DNA of 63,035 bases, filler included, from Methanobacteriota archaeon (lineage in GTDB: Archaea > JACRDV01), in assembly GCA_024860865.1 (NCBI GenBank). It is 4 parts of 4 records of this genome, joined end to end, with 100 filler letters (N's around TTAATTAATTAA, not from the genome) between each part and the next. Parts side by side here need not be neighbours in the genome. Positions count along the whole stretch, not along the records: positions 26,494 to 31,482 come from JACRDV010000065.1; 3 more parts are not named here. One strand, 5' to 3'. The notes below the pieces were generated by a model. It was not told where the DNA came from, ran no database searches, and saw only the letters and a list, made by a program, of their open reading frames with translations. Both the position numbers and the translations under genes were made by a program. The first letter of the stretch is position 1. Each line of letters starts with the position of its first letter. Shown piece after piece: positions 9,119-31,303 of the stretch.

Positions 9119-10606
9119 TTAGCTAATAGCTGTTGTCTTTACTTTTTCCAACTGAAAAGCACTTATGGGGTAGATATTTGAATAATGATATTTTTTTGCC
9201 CACTCCTGGGTTAAGCTCTCCTCCAATTTTTGAAAGGGATCCAACCCCATCTGTTTCCAAGTAGCCAGCATAGTCATGATTATCCCATAGATAGAGGTTC
9301 CCTTCTCATTCCTAAAAGTTCCAATTATCTTCCTCTGAACAACGTGCTCCCTGAGTGCCCTCTCTGCCCTGTTGTTAGTTGGCTCAACTCTTGGTTTAAT
9401 TACAAAGGTGAACCAGTAGTTAGCTCCGTTGCGAATCTTCTTAATTAGTTTTCTCACTTCTTCACTCTTATAAGATTTCTTTACTAAGTATTCCAACCTT
9501 CTCTTTGCACTCTTAGCCAATCTTTTCCTCTTCTCAGGAGGAGGCTTATTTTTAAGTGATTCCTTGAGATCATTGTAAAGCTTGTGCAGCGCTTTAGAAA
9601 GTTGCTTTGCTTCCTCAACATACTCTGCTAGGTAATCTGCTTCCCTCAGCAAGTGGGCCCAATCTCTCTGGATGTTTCGGGTGAATTTTGGATAAGATCT
9701 CCATCCGTCGCAAACTATAACCCCTTTGAAATCATTTCCCAAAATCTCCTCCAAAACTTTTCTGCCCCTGCTGTTTCTTATTGCGACTAATGTTTCAGAG
9801 TTTGTCACGAAACCCCAGAGCCAGTACTTCCTGCCATCAACCTTTCCACCAGTCTCATCGTTGTAAACTACTTCTGACTTTCGTATGCGTTGAACAACTT
9901 CATTGTAACTTGGCTTTAGCCAGTCGCTCACCCTTCTTGTTATATCGAATATAGTTGAGGGCGTGATGGAAAGACCATAAAACCACTTTAGCACATCCCT
10001 AATCTTGCAGTGAGGCAATCTTGCCTCGTACTTCAAAAGAGTAACATAAGCCTGCAAATTCTTGCCAAACCTTCCTTCAGGCGGGCAATCTGGATGCCTA
10101 GCAACAACATGTTTATTGCAGTTTGGGCAAATCCCGTGCCATTCCTGAAAATCTATCACCATAGGCATGGGCTTAGGGATTTCCTCCACTATGTTGTGCT
10201 TAACAGCTATTGGGTTTCCTAGCTTAGCTCCACAGCAAGGGGAAACATTCCACTCAGGCTCTTTTACAACATCAGGTTTTGGGATAGGTCTAGTGCTGCC
10301 AGGATGTCCTTTAGGCCTTCCCGGGAACCTTTTTCCATTTTTTGGACTTCCACCATTGCATTTTTTAGGATACTTTCGCTGGGAGGAAGGCACGTTTGAA
10401 TTTTCGTGAAGAGAAAGCCTGCGCTTCAGTTCTTTTATCTCAATTTTAAGTGCAACATTTTCCTCTTTCAGTGCGGCATTTTCCTCCTTCAGCGCTAGGT
10501 TCTCCTTTCTTAACAAGAGGTTCTCATTGGCTAGCTGGTCAAGCTTTTTTTCCAAATTTTTCAAAAATTCCAGAGAGTGAATTTTCAGCTCGGCTTTATT
10601 TTCCAT
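9119..10606 (-). CDS. tnpC: IS66-family transposase
   Basis: Leucine zipper, NSNVPSS, Zn finger, DETG, CDGW, WAHLLR, TNNRAERALR. Confidence 0.95.
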   Translation of the reverse strand: MENKAELKIHSLEFLKNLEKKLDQLANENLLLRKENLALKEENAALKEENVALKIEIKELKRRLSLHENSNVPSSQRKYPKKCNGGSPKNGKRFPGRPKGHPGSTRPIPKPDVVKEPEWNVSPCCGAKLGNPIAVKHNIVEEIPKPMPMVIDFQEWHGICPNCNKHVVARHPDCPPEGRFGKNLQAYVTLLKYEARLPHCKIRDVLKWFYGLSITPSTIFDITRRVSDWLKPSYNEVVQRIRKSEVVYNDETGGKVDGRKYWLWGFVTNSETLVAIRNSRGRKVLEEILGNDFKGVIVCDGWRSYPKFTRNIQRDWAHLLREADYLAEYVEEAKQLSKALHKLYNDLKESLKNKPPPEKRKRLAKSAKRRLEYLVKKSYKSEEVRKLIKKIRNGANYWFTFVIKPRVEPTNNRAERALREHVVQRKIIGTFRNEKGTSIYGIIMTMLATWKQMGLDPFQKLEESLTQEWAKKYHYSNIYPISAFQLEKVKTTAIS

Positions 10607-10618
10607 GCCTAAAAGAAT

Positions 10619-11957
10619 GACACTGTTCGGAATTACTGGGTTGTCTGACTTATAGCAGACGTACGTCAGCTCAATTACTATTTTTGAAATGGAATCTCTA
10701 ATTCTACTTTATGAAGACCTTTCAAATAGACCTTGGGCCAGGAGGCATTGAGGCATTTATTGCAGTACAGCCTGCAGAAATCAAATGCCCAAGGTGTGGC
10801 TCAACCCATGCAATAGTTCACGATTGTTACTTTCGAAAGGTTCGAGACGTAAATTTGGAGCAAAGCCAAACCATATGCCTCCTGGTGATTCTATATGAGT
10901 GTAAGGAATGTAAAAAAACTTTTGCTCCAAAAATAGATGGGATCGGACCTTACGCAAGGTACACAAATAGAGCAAAGAAATTGGCAAGAGATTCAGTTAT
11001 AAGGGACAACCTTTCAACCAGAAAAGCAGCTGAGAGATTTAAAGAAGACTTTAAATTAAAAACTTCAAACTCAACCATATATGAGTGGTCAAAGGAGAGC
11101 TACGATGAGAAAATCTTTCCATTCAGCTTTTCAGGAGTTCTATGCATAGATGAAGCGCACTCAAAAACAAATGGAAAAGAGGACAGGGTTTTAATTGCTG
11201 CAGATGGAGTTAAAGGAGATGCGATTTTATTTGAGCTGAAAGAAAATGCAAGAGAAGAGAGCATTGAAGAAGCGCTAAAAAAGCTGAAAGAAATGGGAAT
11301 TGAGCCATTTTTAATAGTCACTGATTTTCACTCAGCTTACCATGAAGCGATTGAAAATGTTTTTCCAAATGCTATCCACCAGCTCTGCCATTTCCATTTC
11401 ATGCAACTTATAAACAAGCACCTCTGGAAAGCGATAAAAAAATTCAGGGACAGGTTGAAGAAAGAAGATAGAAAAGAAATAAACAAGCATAGGTTCAAGA
11501 TCTTAAAAAACCAAGAAAATAGGGATAGTGAAGAAGAAAAAATTGTAGGAGATTTACTAAAAAAGCACAAAGGAACAATTCTAGAGAAAGGATTAGTGTT
11601 AAAAGAAAGAATTCAAGAAATTTTCAAAAGCAATAACAAAAAAGAAGCAGTGCAAAAAATAAAAGCAGTATTAAAGGAAAAGCATCCAAAGTCTCTTAGA
11701 AAAATAATCAAGCCAATAAAATATCATTGGAAAGAGCTAATTTCTTACATGGACTTTGAAAATGTTCCAAGGACAAACAATCCGGCTGAGATAGTGAAGA
11801 GAAAGTACAGGGCATTCGAAAGGGCAAGGTATGGATTCAAAAGCAAAGATGGAAAGCAAATGCTCATCAAAAATTTCCAACTTTCAATTTTGATACAAAA
11901 AACAAAAAAATGGTTAGAAGGTCTACCTACCTAAACCCAGTAATTCCGAACAGTCTC
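10619..11957 (+). mobile_element. ISL3-like insertion sequence nested in the IS66 element
   Basis: 24-bp IR GA(C/G)ACTGTTCGGAATTACTGGGTT; 8-bp duplication AAAAGAAT at 10611-10618 and 11958-11965. Confidence 0.95.
10711..11934 (+). CDS. ISL3-like DDE transposase
   Basis: CPRCG...CKEC Zn finger, CIDE, VTDFHSAY, CHFH, TNNPAE. Confidence 0.9.
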   Translation: MKTFQIDLGPGGIEAFIAVQPAEIKCPRCGSTHAIVHDCYFRKVRDVNLEQSQTICLLVILYECKECKKTFAPKIDGIGPYARYTNRAKKLARDSVIRDNLSTRKAAERFKEDFKLKTSNSTIYEWSKESYDEKIFPFSFSGVLCIDEAHSKTNGKEDRVLIAADGVKGDAILFELKENAREESIEEALKKLKEMGIEPFLIVTDFHSAYHEAIENVFPNAIHQLCHFHFMQLINKHLWKAIKKFRDRLKKEDRKEINKHRFKILKNQENRDSEEEKIVGDLLKKHKGTILEKGLVLKERIQEIFKSNNKKEAVQKIKAVLKEKHPKSLRKIIKPIKYHWKELISYMDFENVPRTNNPAEIVKRKYRAFERARYGFKSKDGKQMLIKNFQLSILIQKTKKWLEGLPT

Positions 11958-17279: not shown

Positions 17280-19394
17280 TCACTCAGATTTGGAACTAGT
17301 TTTTTTAATTGTACTAGATTTATTTTTATTCCAATCAGACTTAGTAATACAACTTGGTAACAAACACATTCTAAATGGGCGTTTCCCCTTTCGCCATACC
17401 TGTATCATAGGTAAGCCACATTCTTCACAAGATTTATTCAGTGGAGTTATATTTCCAACAAGAGGCAAGGGGAATCCTGTCTTGCAGTTAGGATAGTTTG
17501 AACAACCGCAAAATCTTTTACCTGTTTTCTTTGAGAATATTATTCTCAATTCTCCCGTTTTACAGTTGGGGCAATTTCCTAATCTTCTTTCTTCCCTCCT
17601 CGCTTCTATTAATCCCTCTAAAAGTTTTTTACCGATTTTACTTTCATTTTCTTTAAATTCATCTAATACATCTGTTAAAGTTTTTTTCGCCTCTTCTATA
17701 ACTTCCTCTCTTTTCTTTTTTCCATTAAAAACTTGTTCCATATCCCTTTCAAAATGTCTTGTTAATTCTTCTGACAATATTCTTGGTGAATATTCTTTCA
17801 AGGCTTTGGTAACAGCTTCACCAAGCTTTGTTACCTTTATACTTTTTCCAGAGATATATCTTCTATCGTACAGTGTTTGTAAAATCTCTGCGCGGGTCGC
17901 TTTAGTTCCAAGATTCCGTGCCTCAAGTTCTTTTACAATACTTCCTTGCGAATATCTACTTGGAGGTTCTGTTTGTTTTGATAACAAGTCTAGTTTTAAA
18001 ATTTTTAGAATCTGGCCAATTTTAAATTCTGGCAGAATCTGTTCTTCAAAAGCGAGATAAGGCGCATATATTTTCGTCCAGCCTTCCTCTATTGTTCTCT
18101 TGCCTTGTGCAATGAATTTGTTTCCATTTACATCAAGAACAACATTCATGCTCTCTCTCAAAGCTTCATCTGAAAAAGCTGATAGAGTTCTTCTTACAAT
18201 TAAATCATAAATTTTCTTCTGCTGAGGAGTTAATTTTGTTATATCAGGGACTTCCCATGTACAATAAACACAGGGGTGTGCAGGATCATCTTTTTTGCCT
18301 TGTACAGGAACCAATTTTTCTTTTGCCAACAATTCTTCTGCAAATTTTTTATATTGAGGCAATGTAGCTAAAGATTTTAAAATTTTTTCATAGTTAACAC
18401 TAGGAGGCAATTTTTGTGAGGAGGACCTAGGGTAAGAGACAAAACCGGCTTGGTACAAGCTTTCTGCAATGCTAAGGGTCTGTTTTGGCGAAAACTTGAA
18501 TTGACTGTAAGCTTCTGACTGTAGGTCTGTTGTGTTAAAAGGAACAGGAGGTGATTGTTTATATCGCCTTTTCTTGATGTCTTTTACCGTCGCATCATTA
18601 TCTTTACAATCGGTAAGGATTTTTTCTGCTTCTTCCTTTTTCCAGATTTTATCCTCTTCATAAGTTGCAACAATTTCTTTTCCATTTGCTTTGAAATGCA
18701 ATTCTAATTGCCAGAAGGGAGTTGGTTTAAATTTTCTGATTTCCAGCTCCATTTCTAAAAGCATTGCTAGAGTTGGACTTTGCACTCGACCCGAAGATAA
18801 AATGGCAAAACCTCTTTCAGCCTGGCTTTTTAAAGCTAGTGTTAATGCACGTGTGGTATTAAAGCCCCAGAAGGCATCTAGAGCATGGCGTGTTAAACCA
18901 CTTTCCAACATAGGAAACATAATATGGTTTTCCATATTTTTGTAAGATTCTACCAATTCGTCTTTGGTTAGAGTACTAAATTTCATTCTTTTCGCGTCTT
19001 TTACACCACAAATAAATCGTAAAATATTATATAGAAGAACTTCCCCTTCTGTATCAACATCTGCCGCATCAATAAATTCAGTGGCATTTTTTGCAAGTTC
19101 TTCAATATTCTTAAAATATTTTTCTGTCCAATTTGTCTCTTTTTTAGTGTAGGTGGGAATCCATTCTAAATCAAACACAGGGTAATTCCATCCTTTAGGA
19201 TTATGTTTTTTAGAAGGATTAAGGACAAACAAATGACCAACTGCAGGCACGCAAATATGTTTTTTTCCATTAACTGTGAATTCATAATAAGGTACATTAT
19301 TTTTTGTTATTACTCTAGGTTTTTTGTCGGCTATAGCTTCGGCAATCCTTCTTGCAGCATCGGGTTTTTCTGCTATGATTAGTGTATAACTCAT
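17280..19394 (-). CDS. topA: DNA topoisomerase IA
   Basis: IAEKP, DVDTEGE, SSGRVQSP, VSYPR active Tyr, LGTKATR, C-terminal Zn ribbons. Confidence 0.97.
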   Translation of the reverse strand: MSYTLIIAEKPDAARRIAEAIADKKPRVITKNNVPYYEFTVNGKKHICVPAVGHLFVLNPSKKHNPKGWNYPVFDLEWIPTYTKKETNWTEKYFKNIEELAKNATEFIDAADVDTEGEVLLYNILRFICGVKDAKRMKFSTLTKDELVESYKNMENHIMFPMLESGLTRHALDAFWGFNTTRALTLALKSQAERGFAILSSGRVQSPTLAMLLEMELEIRKFKPTPFWQLELHFKANGKEIVATYEEDKIWKKEEAEKILTDCKDNDATVKDIKKRRYKQSPPVPFNTTDLQSEAYSQFKFSPKQTLSIAESLYQAGFVSYPRSSSQKLPPSVNYEKILKSLATLPQYKKFAEELLAKEKLVPVQGKKDDPAHPCVYCTWEVPDITKLTPQQKKIYDLIVRRTLSAFSDEALRESMNVVLDVNGNKFIAQGKRTIEEGWTKIYAPYLAFEEQILPEFKIGQILKILKLDLLSKQTEPPSRYSQGSIVKELEARNLGTKATRAEILQTLYDRRYISGKSIKVTKLGEAVTKALKEYSPRILSEELTRHFERDMEQVFNGKKKREEVIEEAKKTLTDVLDEFKENESKIGKKLLEGLIEARREERRLGNCPNCKTGELRIIFSKKTGKRFCGCSNYPNCKTGFPLPLVGNITPLNKSCEECGLPMIQVWRKGKRPFRMCLLPSCITKSDWNKNKSSTIKKTSSKSE

Positions 19395-22820: not shown

Positions 22821-23810
22821 TTAAAATACTTTAATATCTTCTACAGTCGCCTTTCTACTAAAATCGCTGATTTCTATACCATCAAATAAATAGGCAAGAG
22901 GATACTTGATTTCACGAATAATTCTCAGTTTTTCTTTTGCCACACTTTTCTTCAAAAGAGACCTTGCAAGAGACAAGAAATTTTTATCCCTCTCATCAAG
23001 TTCTGCTAGAAAAGAATAATACGATATCACTTCCTCTATTGCTTTGGTAAGAGAGAAGCCAGAATCTGTCCTTATAAATCCAAATACATCATCAACAAAT
23101 TTCCTATATATGAACTTGCTCTCTATGTTTTTGAAAAATATTTTTGGATTAAAAATTTTTCTAGTTCTGTAAAAATAATATAAAACAAGTTTTCTCAGAA
23201 CTGTTTTGTCAGGATTGAGCCTTGATACGTGATACAAATCATAGATGTCTCTGCCCTTCAGCCTGTCATATAAAGCCCTGATTTTTGTTGCTGCAATTTC
23301 TTCAATGCTGTAGGTCGTTACTATGAATTTTTTATTTGTAATAGGCAACAAGAGCTCTTTTTCTACTTTGTTTAACACAGGAAATCTTTCAATAAAGGAA
23401 ATCTCCAATTTTATTGGTTGTAAAGTCCCAAAAACAGGGGTATACTTTGCATGTATTGTGGTCTGTTCATATCTTGTTTTGGTTTTTATCTTATAATTCA
23501 TATCTTGCTCTTTAAGCAGTTCTATTATTCTGTCTTTTATTTTTCTCCTTTCTTCCATTATCTTTCCTTTTTTCCCTATGGCATTAAAGTCCAAATCTAT
23601 AGAAAGCCTGGGTGTTTCTTTCAAGAAAAGTTTGTTTATCGCAGTACCGCCCTTCAGATAAAGTCTTTCTGCAAGAAATTTGTCTGCGTAAATGTCTTTC
23701 AAAACATGGATTAGTCTGAAATCCTGTTCAGCTAAGCTCAAATTATTTGTTTTTATTTCAGATGCCCATTTTTTAATTTTTGTCTCTGTTATTTCCAGCA
23801 AATTTACCAT
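22821..23810 (-). CDS. abiEii: AbiEii-type nucleotidyltransferase toxin (type IV TA)
   Basis: LKGGTA, RLSIDLDF, KIRAL..R...RDIYD. Confidence 0.92.
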   Translation of the reverse strand: MVNLLEITETKIKKWASEIKTNNLSLAEQDFRLIHVLKDIYADKFLAERLYLKGGTAINKLFLKETPRLSIDLDFNAIGKKGKIMEERRKIKDRIIELLKEQDMNYKIKTKTRYEQTTIHAKYTPVFGTLQPIKLEISFIERFPVLNKVEKELLLPITNKKFIVTTYSIEEIAATKIRALYDRLKGRDIYDLYHVSRLNPDKTVLRKLVLYYFYRTRKIFNPKIFFKNIESKFIYRKFVDDVFGFIRTDSGFSLTKAIEEVISYYSFLAELDERDKNFLSLARSLLKKSVAKEKLRIIREIKYPLAYLFDGIEISDFSRKATVEDIKVF

Positions 23811-24640
23811 CCCATTATATCCACGTTCTCAATTATGTTCCATTTTTTGGATAGCTTTCCTTTTTTATGAGCAGCAATATCTAAAAGGTATGCTTTGTTT
23901 GAAACATGTTTTTCTAACTCCTTCAACAAATTTCTATTCACTTTATATCTATTCTGATACAACTTATCCAAAATAAACCCAAACCTCTGCTTGAGAGAGA
24001 AAGTCTTTATTCTGTTTATATACAAAATTAATTTTTTAGTGTTTATTCTATCCAAGGAATTAGAAATGGTCCTTGCAACCTCACCTAATCCACCGCACAA
24101 ATCATAGCGATCCACTAAATCTATTGTGGTTTTCTCTAGATCTGACACATTTAAAAATGAGTTTGAATACTTCATTCTTTCAATTCCAAAGGACATCTTC
24201 TCTGAAATTTTTCTGAACTCTATTCTACTGTTTCCTATTTGTACGGGTCTTCTCTGCCTTACAACAGCAACAGTGACGATCATAGGAAGTTGCTCGGCTA
24301 TTCCATGCAAGTGGGCAGCACTTTGGTAACCTACATAATATTTCTCGTTTAAAATTTGCATGAGTTGGTCTATTATTAGGTACGGATCATTTACAAATTT
24401 CTCTCTATTGTAGAGCATGTCTGGTGGAATAACTATGTATGTGCCTTTCCCTGCCCTGAAGAGTATTTTCTTTTTTGTCAGGTTGTGCAAAATCTTTCTT
24501 GCATTACCTTCTCTAATCTTCTGATACTTTACTATTTGTTCTACACTTGTAACACTCCTTTCCTTGTTGATAAGAGAAAAATATACTTCCTGCTCTCTTG
24601 GGCTCATTTTAATCCTTAAATCCTTCAATTTTTCCCTCAT
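23804..24640 (-). CDS. abiEi: AbiEi-type antitoxin/regulator
   Basis: N-terminal wHTH, YYVGYQSAAHLHG, SDLEKTTID; overlaps the toxin gene. Confidence 0.9.
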   Translation of the reverse strand: MREKLKDLRIKMSPREQEVYFSLINKERSVTSVEQIVKYQKIREGNARKILHNLTKKKILFRAGKGTYIVIPPDMLYNREKFVNDPYLIIDQLMQILNEKYYVGYQSAAHLHGIAEQLPMIVTVAVVRQRRPVQIGNSRIEFRKISEKMSFGIERMKYSNSFLNVSDLEKTTIDLVDRYDLCGGLGEVARTISNSLDRINTKKLILYINRIKTFSLKQRFGFILDKLYQNRYKVNRNLLKELEKHVSNKAYLLDIAAHKKGKLSKKWNIIENVDIMGW

Positions 24641-29954: not shown

Positions 29955-30189
29955 CAGTAACCCCTCATATTAATATTTTTAACTAAAGTTTAGGTGTTTA
30001 AACAAATAATAAAGTTAAGTTTATTTTGCCTTTTTTAGGGATTTGAAGCCATTTTATAGGATTTAAATTAGCGTAAGTTTATAGGAAATTATTTTTCAGA
30101 AATCTTAATAATTAAGAACTGAACAGCAGGTGTCCAAAATTTTATAGTGAGTAACGAAAATATTATTAAAAATGATCTAAGTGGGCCCA

Positions 30190-30367
30190 GGGCCCGTAAG
30201 CGGAATCTTCCGCCGGGATGCTCAGCTTGGTTAGAGCGTCCGAGGAAATAACTCCGGCGAAGCTCATAACCGGATGGTCAGTTGGATGAACTGAGCTCAG
30301 AGGCTTCTATTGGCTTGAGCAGACTCATCCTCCCTAAAAACCGGTTCAAATCCGGTCGGGCCCACCA
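30190..30367 (+). tRNA. tRNA-Ile2(CAT) with three introns: 30199-30219 (9/10), 30243-30261 (30/31), 30280-30339 (48/49); CCA encoded
   Basis: The spliced 78-nt product folds as a complete cloverleaf and every junction lies in a BHB. A GGGCCCG acceptor stem favours Ile2 over Met. Confidence 0.88.
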
Positions 30368-30485
30368 GTTTTGAATACACGTAAGCGAGCAACTTATCAT
30401 TTATGAAATCGTTAAATCTACGGCAAAAGATTTTAAACCTAATAAAAGGAATTATTTCTAGTGCTCCGGTCAGCCGGGCGCTGCT

Positions 30486-30651
30486 GCTCCAGGTTCGACA
30501 AGAATCGGCAAAGGTAGTCTAGCCCGGTCAAAACTCTCAGTTGCCGGTAGGATTTCGGCCTTAACAGGTTAGTTTTTCTAATCTATGGCCAATCGAGCCG
30601 GAGACACGGGTTCAAAGGAGAAATTCTCTGAAAATCCCGTCCGGAGCACCA
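30486..30651 (+). tRNA. tRNA-Glu(TTC) with four introns: 30491-30512 (5/6), 30531-30548 (20b/21), 30563-30592 (34/35), 30617-30634 (59/60); CCA encoded
   Basis: Spliced 78-nt product GCTCCGGTAGTCTAGCCCGGTCAAGGATTTCGGCCTTTCGAGCCGGAGACACGGGTTCAAATCCCGTCCGGAGCACCA; four BHB motifs. Confidence 0.92.
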
Positions 30652-30704
30652 CTATTTTTGAGAAATTACTTTAAATGAAAGCAAACTTATTGTTTTATAT
30701 CGTT

Positions 30705-30819
30705 GCGGGGGTGTTCCGAGCGGTCAAAGGAGCTGGAGGTTTGCACTCAGGTGTAGATCGGCGAAGCTTAGGACCCAGTGGGCGTAGGCCCTTCCAGGGT
30801 TCAAATCCCTGCCCCCGCA
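30705..30819 (+). tRNA. tRNA-Leu(TAG) with one intron, 30737-30765 (30/31)
   Basis: GCGGGGG/CCCCCGC acceptor, long variable arm, BHB with one A.G mismatch. Confidence 0.9.
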
Positions 30820-30883
30820 CTATTTTTACTTCTTTTTAGAAAATAAGCTCAAATTGCGTATATGATAGAAAAATAATGGTAAA

Positions 30884-31303
30884 TTATTCACTTTTCAATA
30901 TCTCTGCCATTTCAGCAGCTGTTACAATCTTTATTCCTTTATATTCCCGCAGGTTCAGGAGATGCTTGTCCCTGGAGACTATATAGTCTGCTTTTCCCTC
31001 CACAGCGCATTCGATTACCATGTTATCACTTAGGTCAGCTTGAATCACATCCAGCTTTATCCGAGGATTAATGATTCGGGACATGGAATATATCTTGTTC
31101 ATGATCACTTTCACGGTCTGACCAGATCTTTCAATTATAGGCTTCAGCTTTTAGTCTTCCAGGACCTCTTCTACCTCCTCTAAAATGCCCACTGAAAGTA
31201 AGAGTTCGCCTTCTCCAGAGTCAATTCTTTCTAGGAGTTCTGATGGTTTTCCCTTCCAAAGAAACCCTGAAACAATGACGTTAGTGTCAAGGACAATCCT
31301 CAT
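30884..31303 (-). pseudogene. PIN-domain toxin with an in-frame TAA at 31151-31153
   Basis: MRIVLDTNV...VLED*KLKP...DNMVIECAVEGKADYIVS. Confidence 0.88.

Follow-up and report, generated by a model that had tools for sequence, protein, structure and literature searches.

The tRNA genes of the Thermoproteales are interrupted by short introns with bulge-helix-bulge (BHB), HBh' or hBH motifs, which lie at non-canonical positions, several to a gene (Sugahara et al. 2007/2008; PMC4033280, PMC4090602). In the available sections of these sources, the positions include 20/21, 30/31, 59/60 and, as the extreme case within the acceptor stem, 3/4, and classical finders are described as missing such genes. 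The maximum given in 2014 reviews, as far as their available text goes, is three introns per gene (PMC4033280), a number also reported for nuclear tRNA genes of Cyanidioschyzon merolae (PMC3728597). Interruption is more extreme in the Asgard archaea. Valentin-Alvarado et al. (2024) describe 92-95% of the tRNA genes in three Asgard genomes as intron-bearing (PMC11291895), and a preprint of October 2026 counts 2.2 intervening sequences for each gene, with a maximum of five in a single gene (bioRxiv 10.64898/2026.10.13.758758). According to the accessible parts of both, Asgard tRNA genes are mostly interrupted, many of the introns are non-canonical and those in the D-arm are overlooked by annotators.

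In DPANN lineages, more disrupted tRNA genes and broad-specificity EndA variants have been described by Kaneta et al. (2018), who also took incomplete tRNA sets as a hint of unidentified disrupted genes; their genome set, as presented in the available text, is without Aenigmarchaeota (PMC5829648). We found no study of Aenigmarchaeota tRNA introns in the literature searched (titles and abstracts). A further related system is that of the split tRNAs of Nanoarchaeum equitans, in which, as in the gene described below, a leader helps to build the splice motif (PMC4090602, in the part available).

Here we describe a tRNA-Glu(TTC) gene in a 63,035-nt stretch of archaeal DNA, the whole of which was analysed and is called the window below. 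Judged from its sequence, the locus is very likely a functional, single-transcript tRNA-Glu(UUC) gene with four BHB introns, from an uncultured archaeon that probably belongs to the Aenigmatarchaeota (DPANN). It resembles the Thermoproteales genes in its several short introns at non-canonical positions and differs from them in having four introns where the sources available for that order give three at most, and in its DPANN rather than crenarchaeal host. Its acceptor-stem intron, at 5/6, is not among the positions given for Thermoproteales in the available text of PMC4033280 and PMC4090602. With the Asgard intervening sequences it shares a preference for canonical BHB boundaries, as far as the accessible preprint text describes them (bioRxiv 10.64898/2026.10.13.758758), while the Asgard hosts form a different superphylum from the probable DPANN host of this locus.

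Results

Gene structure

Excision of 30491-30512, 30531-30548, 30563-30592 and 30617-30634 leaves a 78-nt tRNA-Glu(TTC) that ends in CCA; given the joined exons, ARAGORN calls tRNA-Glu(ttc), 78 nt, with a perfect cloverleaf. The original prediction had proposed this gene, with the same sequence at 30486-30651 and with BHB-type introns at 5/6, 20b/21, 34/35 and 59/60, one in each tRNA arm, and it was confirmed through ARAGORN, motif scoring and alignment. Introns make up 88 of the 166 nt (22+18+30+18). Between 30486 and 30651 all five exons follow one another in order on the + strand, unlike those of split or permuted tRNA genes. The parts of the gene are listed below, with the lengths of the central helix (H), outer helix (h) and intron helix (h').

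30486..30490, + strand: exon 1, tRNA positions 1-5 (splicing and alignment)
30491..30512, + strand: intron 1, in the acceptor stem at 5/6, 22 nt long, with an hBHBh' motif (H 4, h 5, h' 5; alignment)
30513..30530, + strand: exon 2, positions 6-20b (splicing and alignment)
30531..30548, + strand: intron 2, in the D-loop at 20b/21, 18 nt long, with an hBHBh' motif (H 4, h 2, h' 4)
30549..30562, + strand: exon 3, positions 21-34 (splicing and alignment)
30563..30592, + strand: intron 3, 30 nt, at 34/35 within the anticodon (H 4, h 0, h' 1, mismatch, 7 bp)
30593..30616, + strand: exon 4, positions 35-59 (splicing and alignment)
30617..30634, + strand: intron 4, in the T-loop at 59/60, 18 nt long, with an hBHBh' motif whose outer helix is the T-stem (H 4, h 5, h' 4)
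30635..30651, + strand: exon 5, positions 60-76, with the encoded CCA at 30649-30651 (sequence and ARAGORN)
30655..30659, + strand: run of five T, likely transcription stop, read from the sequence

Oligo-T is a termination signal for the archaeal RNA polymerase. The expectation that standard finders would miss the locus held for ARAGORN and for Rfam/Infernal at the gathering score: ARAGORN reported 0 tRNA genes both in the unspliced interval 30440-30680 and in the entire 63-kb window, and Rfam/Infernal at the gathering score gave no tRNA match in the window. A permissive Rfam search of 30300-31100 recovered only tRNA-match fragments, for two neighbouring tRNA genes.

Intron boundaries were placed by a spliced alignment blind to the splice motif, in which the locus was compared with seven intronless tRNA-Glu(TTC) genes from metagenomes. 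The same four insertions, at the boundaries listed above, were found against all seven relatives, with the D-loop insertion placed 3 nt leftward against one of them. The boundaries can slide by 0, 1, 0 and 3 nt for the four introns in order, and for intron 1 this freedom is zero against every one of the seven. The closest intronless gene among the matches listed (L016) agrees with the spliced product at 69 of 74 positions, and the five differences are neutral for the fold: compensatory changes in the pairs 12/23 and 49/65, and a change at position 27 from G-U to G-C.

Splice motifs

The published rule for a canonical motif calls for two 3-nt bulges, a 4-bp central helix and one or both of the flanking helices (hBHBh', HBh' or hBH). 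As had been predicted, the central helices (TGCT/GGCA, CGGT/GCCG, GGCC/GGCC and TTCA/TGAA) have four of four pairs each, and the cuts fall after the second base of the 3-nt bulges. Introns 1, 2 and 4 have strict hBHBh' motifs, whose outer and intron helices measure 5+5, 2+4 and 5+4 bp, respectively. Intron 3 has the central helix only: it is without an outer helix, and in its intron helix a C/A mismatch separates the first 1 bp from the following 7 bp (the latter counted by eye), so that its sequence in the window fails the strict canonical rule. Three of the four junctions are thus hBHBh', and the fourth is HBh' in a sister strain (see below). The motif of intron 1 extends from position -1 to position 11 and draws in part on the 5' leader: its central helix pairs 30485-88 with 30507-10, and its 5-bp outer helix pairs leader bases 30480-84 with 30514-18 (positions 7-11).

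At random placements in the window, hBHBh' turned up with a frequency of 0.0004-0.0007; the corresponding value for any 4-pair central helix was about 0.023. An unguided enumeration of motifs in the locus returned 8 hBHBh' among about 17,000 pairs, which is about chance level. The signal is the coincidence of the motifs with boundaries defined by homology, and a chance origin of the motifs at these boundaries is excluded. All four motifs, together with a helix between the leader and the 3' end, fit into one nested structure of -55.4 kcal/mol (-59.6 with extra pairs). The predicted minimum (-85) is lower by about 25-30 kcal/mol, and the all-motif fold would require protein binding or sequential folding.

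Strain variation and neighbouring tRNA genes

Contigs from four public DNA runs were compared over 30100-30900, and the gene is present in contigs assembled independently from three other studies. One contig (X1) covers the whole of 30100-30900 with 3 differences, and contigs from other studies (X2 record 9 and X4 record 21) cover the Glu gene with ten differences. Recovery of the same arrangement in independent contigs from the runs of three further studies speaks against an assembly or chimera artefact, a reading for which we found no supporting point and to which we attach next to no probability. A pattern scan of viral contigs gave 0 matches, and the matches listed from the metagenome scan include no contig with a sequence equal or nearly equal to that of the window locus.

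The differences in X2 and X4 lie in the leader (30479), the loop of intron 1 (30499, 30501), the trailer (30652, 30662), intron 3 (a gain and a loss of one base each, and A30585G) and the loop of intron 4 (one base gained). None of the ten falls within the 78 exon bases (P = 0.042, among closely related strains). Reconstruction of the sister-strain variant gives the same spliced product, with a canonical motif at each of the four introns; in intron 3 the mismatch is removed by A30585G, which gives H 4 with h' 5, that is, HBh'.

Two further tRNA genes lie beside the Glu gene:

30190..30367, + strand: tRNA-Met(CAT) with three insertions, 30199-30219, 30243-30261 and ~30280-30339 (ARAGORN accepts the 78-nt spliced form)
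30706..30820, + strand: tRNA-Leu(TAG) with a 29-nt insertion at 30/31, 30737-30765 (ARAGORN accepts the 86-nt spliced form)

The insertions of tRNA-Met(CAT) measure 21 nt at 9/10, 19 nt at 30/31 and about 60 nt at 48/49, with motif scores of 4/3/6 and 4/3/3 (both hBHBh') and of 3/6/1 (relaxed, with three of four central pairs). Its first motif occupies acceptor positions 4-7, and its leader contains a copy of the acceptor strand at 30181-30188. The third insertion is shorter by 26 nt in the related strain X2. A nested intron was considered for this insertion and rejected, as no pair of inner and outer canonical motifs was found. ARAGORN reports nothing for unspliced tRNA-Leu(TAG), whose motif scores 3/3/8 (relaxed, three of four central pairs) at the boundary that the fold requires and which has no leader copy. 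One base inward on each side (30738-30764) there is a perfect HBh', a placement that we rejected: it leaves two extra bases, and ARAGORN rejects the product. The 30/31 insertions of the Met and Leu genes have common ends (AGG... and ...CGGCGAA).

These observations can be set against the reading of the locus as a decaying, non-functional tRNA-Glu pseudogene that has retained its insertions. A pseudogene would not be expected to yield exons that form a perfect cloverleaf, followed by an encoded CCA and a T-run, or to show a central splice helix at every homology-defined junction. The ten strain differences spare the exons, with one of them repairing an intron helix, and both neighbouring tRNA genes are similarly built. 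We consider decay very improbable. The gene is real and probably functional, with introns that are predicted to be spliced by proteins.

The host was assigned from one protein. The topoisomerase IA gene at 17280-19394 (- strand) has its top matches at 70-75% identity; 16 of its best 120 rows carry an organism label, and 15 of these 16 read Aenigmat(arch)aeota, the other Bathyarchaeia. NCBI places Aenigmat(arch)aeota in Nanobdellati, i.e. DPANN, and the host is thus probably an aenigmatarchaeon. For the neighbouring ATPase gene, the syntenic search gave one locus, at 46% identity, in a MAG labelled Methanothermococcus. The window also carries genes for IS66-family and ISL3/Mutator-like transposases and an AbiEi/AbiEii toxin-antitoxin pair (9119-10606, - strand; 10711-11934, + strand; 22821-24640, - strand). 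Apart from the transposases and the AbiE pair, the remainder of the window consists of ordinary genes.

Introns in tRNA-Glu genes of metagenomes

Metagenome contigs were scanned for a pattern made of the T-arm and the 3' acceptor strand with a gap of 0-30 nt, which gave at least 120 loci. At the T-loop site, 57 of the 120 loci among the matches listed are uninterrupted and 63 have an insertion of 16-28 nt. As this 59/60 intron (16-28 nt, ending in TGAA and two bases) occurs in 63/120 loci among the matches listed, from many kinds of metagenome, it is widespread. At least 100 loci (out of 120 among the matches listed) were accepted by ARAGORN as tRNA-Glu after spliced alignment. Among the matches listed, these 100 have called insertions as follows: none in 27, one in 18, two in 18, three in 11, four in 25 and five in a single gene. 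With the window product as its query, the spliced alignment locates boundaries only roughly in divergent genes, and a score of 'none' is common among the junctions.

After permissive refinement of the 46 loci with at least three insertions, at least six four-insertion genes have canonical motifs throughout. This count is soft, because refinement by ±6 nt tries 169 placements per junction and about one chance canonical match is expected; among the refined junctions, the D-loop junction of L063 alone was verified by eye. Canonical motifs recur, among the matches listed, at 59/60 (37 loci), 37/38 (16), 10/11 (14), 34/35 (12) and 20b/21 (9), and at 5/6 in 0 loci among the matches listed. Positions 20b/21, 34/35 and 59/60 are thus recurrent in environmental archaeal tRNA-Glu genes, and the acceptor-stem intron is the unusual one of the four.

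The leader copy of the acceptor strand

Upstream of exon 1 the following features were recognized:

30430..30437, + strand: candidate TATA box, an all-A/T 8-mer, 33 nt upstream of the GCTCCG of the leader copy
30461..30469, + strand: leader copy of the acceptor 5' strand, able to pair with 30641-30649 (positions 66-74) as a candidate spare or decoy strand
30470..30485, + strand: remaining 5' leader, with the outer-helix strand of intron 1 at 30480-30484 and the first base of its central helix at 30485

The TATA assignment is not unique, since two other all-A/T 8-mers also precede the copy, by 23 and 13 nt. Ahead of the repeated acceptor sequence stand two bases matching the discriminator and C74. 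The copy is complementary to the 3' acceptor strand, and the intron-1 motif occupies the real 5' strand, the two properties looked for in a spare strand. In an RNAfold prediction for 30460-30655 the leader copy pairs with the 3' end (-85 kcal/mol, z -6.6); omission of the leader changes the values to -60.4 kcal/mol and z -3.1. Excision of the upstream copy as a fifth BHB intron was also considered and rejected, the canonical motif list holding no placement that gives the same product.

Similar copies are found in the metagenome genes, 104 of which, among the matches listed, have enough upstream sequence to be counted. All 16 tRNA-Glu genes among the matches listed whose first intron lies at 8/9 or 10/11 have a leader copy 12-18 nt upstream (L006, L025, L038, L057, L061, L063, L066, L067, L074, L078, L098, L102, L106, L107, L109 and L118), as against 2 of the 88 without a 5'-proximal intron. 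The association between copy and 5'-proximal intron, among the matches listed, has a Fisher P of 6e-17, with the 16 genes falling into about 4-5 related groups and so not being independent. In 15 of the 16 copy-bearing genes among the matches listed, the A/T-richest 8-mer lies 29-32 nt upstream of the copy, and in genes without such introns the median distance from this 8-mer to the mature 5' end is 32 (n = 87, among the matches listed). Since the leader copy stands at the usual distance of a 5' end from its promoter, transcription probably begins right at this copy, which may represent the ancestral 5' end.

The same mature tRNA would also result if the upstream copy itself, at 30463-30467, were exon 1. 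The first intron would then measure 45 nt (30468-30512), the transcript would be nearly leaderless and the proximal GCTCC would be intronic. Spliced alignment ties the two parses when intron length is unpenalised, the same TGCT/GGCA central helix can form, and the upstream copy stands about 31-33 nt from the TATA-like 8-mer, which is the distance of the mature 5' end in intronless relatives among the matches listed. The interval 30468-30512, however, offers the central helix only, with no outer helix and (by eye) one intron-helix pair, and is absent from the canonical list, whereas the proximal placement has 5+5 flanking pairs. In the metagenome genes, moreover, bases 8-10 adjoin the proximal copy alone in all 8 that were inspected, out of 16 comparable genes among the matches listed; because bases 8-10 follow only the proximal copy, the upstream copy is not an exon in those eight genes. 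We thus regard an upstream exon 1 as unlikely and retain the proximal sequence at 30486-30490 as exon 1.

Discussion

The splice motifs are the observed part of the processing of this gene, and the steps that follow are modelled on the established pathway of archaeal tRNA splicing. Transcription would run from about 30460 to the T-run past 30651. Each intron, with its flanking exon bases, would adopt the bulge-helix-bulge fold, EndA would cleave both 3-nt bulges of each motif, and an RtcB-type ligase would join the five exons. The leader of about 25 nt would be trimmed at G1 (30486), presumably by RNase P, with the CCA already encoded. Because the intron-1 motif occupies the whole 5' acceptor strand and five leader bases, the 3' acceptor strand is most likely held by 30461-69. 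The spare strand would thereby pair with the 3' acceptor strand, the discriminator and C74 and leave the real 5' strand free for the splice motif. The precursor could then be pictured as a pseudo-cloverleaf with four splice-motif arms, closed by the helix between decoy and 3' end, and we hypothesize that the spare strand would be displaced once exon 1 had been joined to exon 2.

Tentatively, and stopping a little short of endorsing it, we put forward the idea that the spare strand is a cis-acting folding helper, of general use in archaeal tRNA genes whose introns lie within the acceptor strand or adjoin it. No published description of a leader-encoded spare acceptor strand was found in the literature searched, and the words 'DPANN' and 'leader' have 0 occurrences each in the main text of the Asgard preprint (bioRxiv 10.64898/2026.10.13.758758). 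Unlike the split tRNAs of N. equitans, as described in the available part of PMC4090602, the exons of this gene are colinear within 166 nt and would be spliced in cis, with a leader copy that imitates the acceptor strand and is not the complement of a trailer on another transcript.

The suggestion that four introns might exceed the described range was not borne out. Four-insertion genes occur in the metagenomes, and the count of four is not new, since the Asgard preprint, in its available text, gives up to five in one gene. The locus is a clear example, not a record, of a heavily interrupted tRNA gene, and its less ordinary features are the leader-built acceptor-stem intron and the spare strand.

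The gene extends the extreme interruption of tRNA genes, seen in the Asgard archaea and at a lower level in the Thermoproteales, to a probable DPANN lineage. Neither ARAGORN nor Rfam at the gathering score sees any of the three tRNA genes of the cluster, which matters for annotation: a small genome seems to lack tRNAs when interrupted genes of this kind are missed. The gene provides a compact test substrate: within 166 nt each arm carries one motif, the motifs differ in quality by degrees, and one of the four is built with the leader. Together with its leader copy, it bears on how an acceptor-stem intron could be presented to the endonuclease, and if the copy is the ancestral 5' end, the helper would be tied to the origin of such introns.
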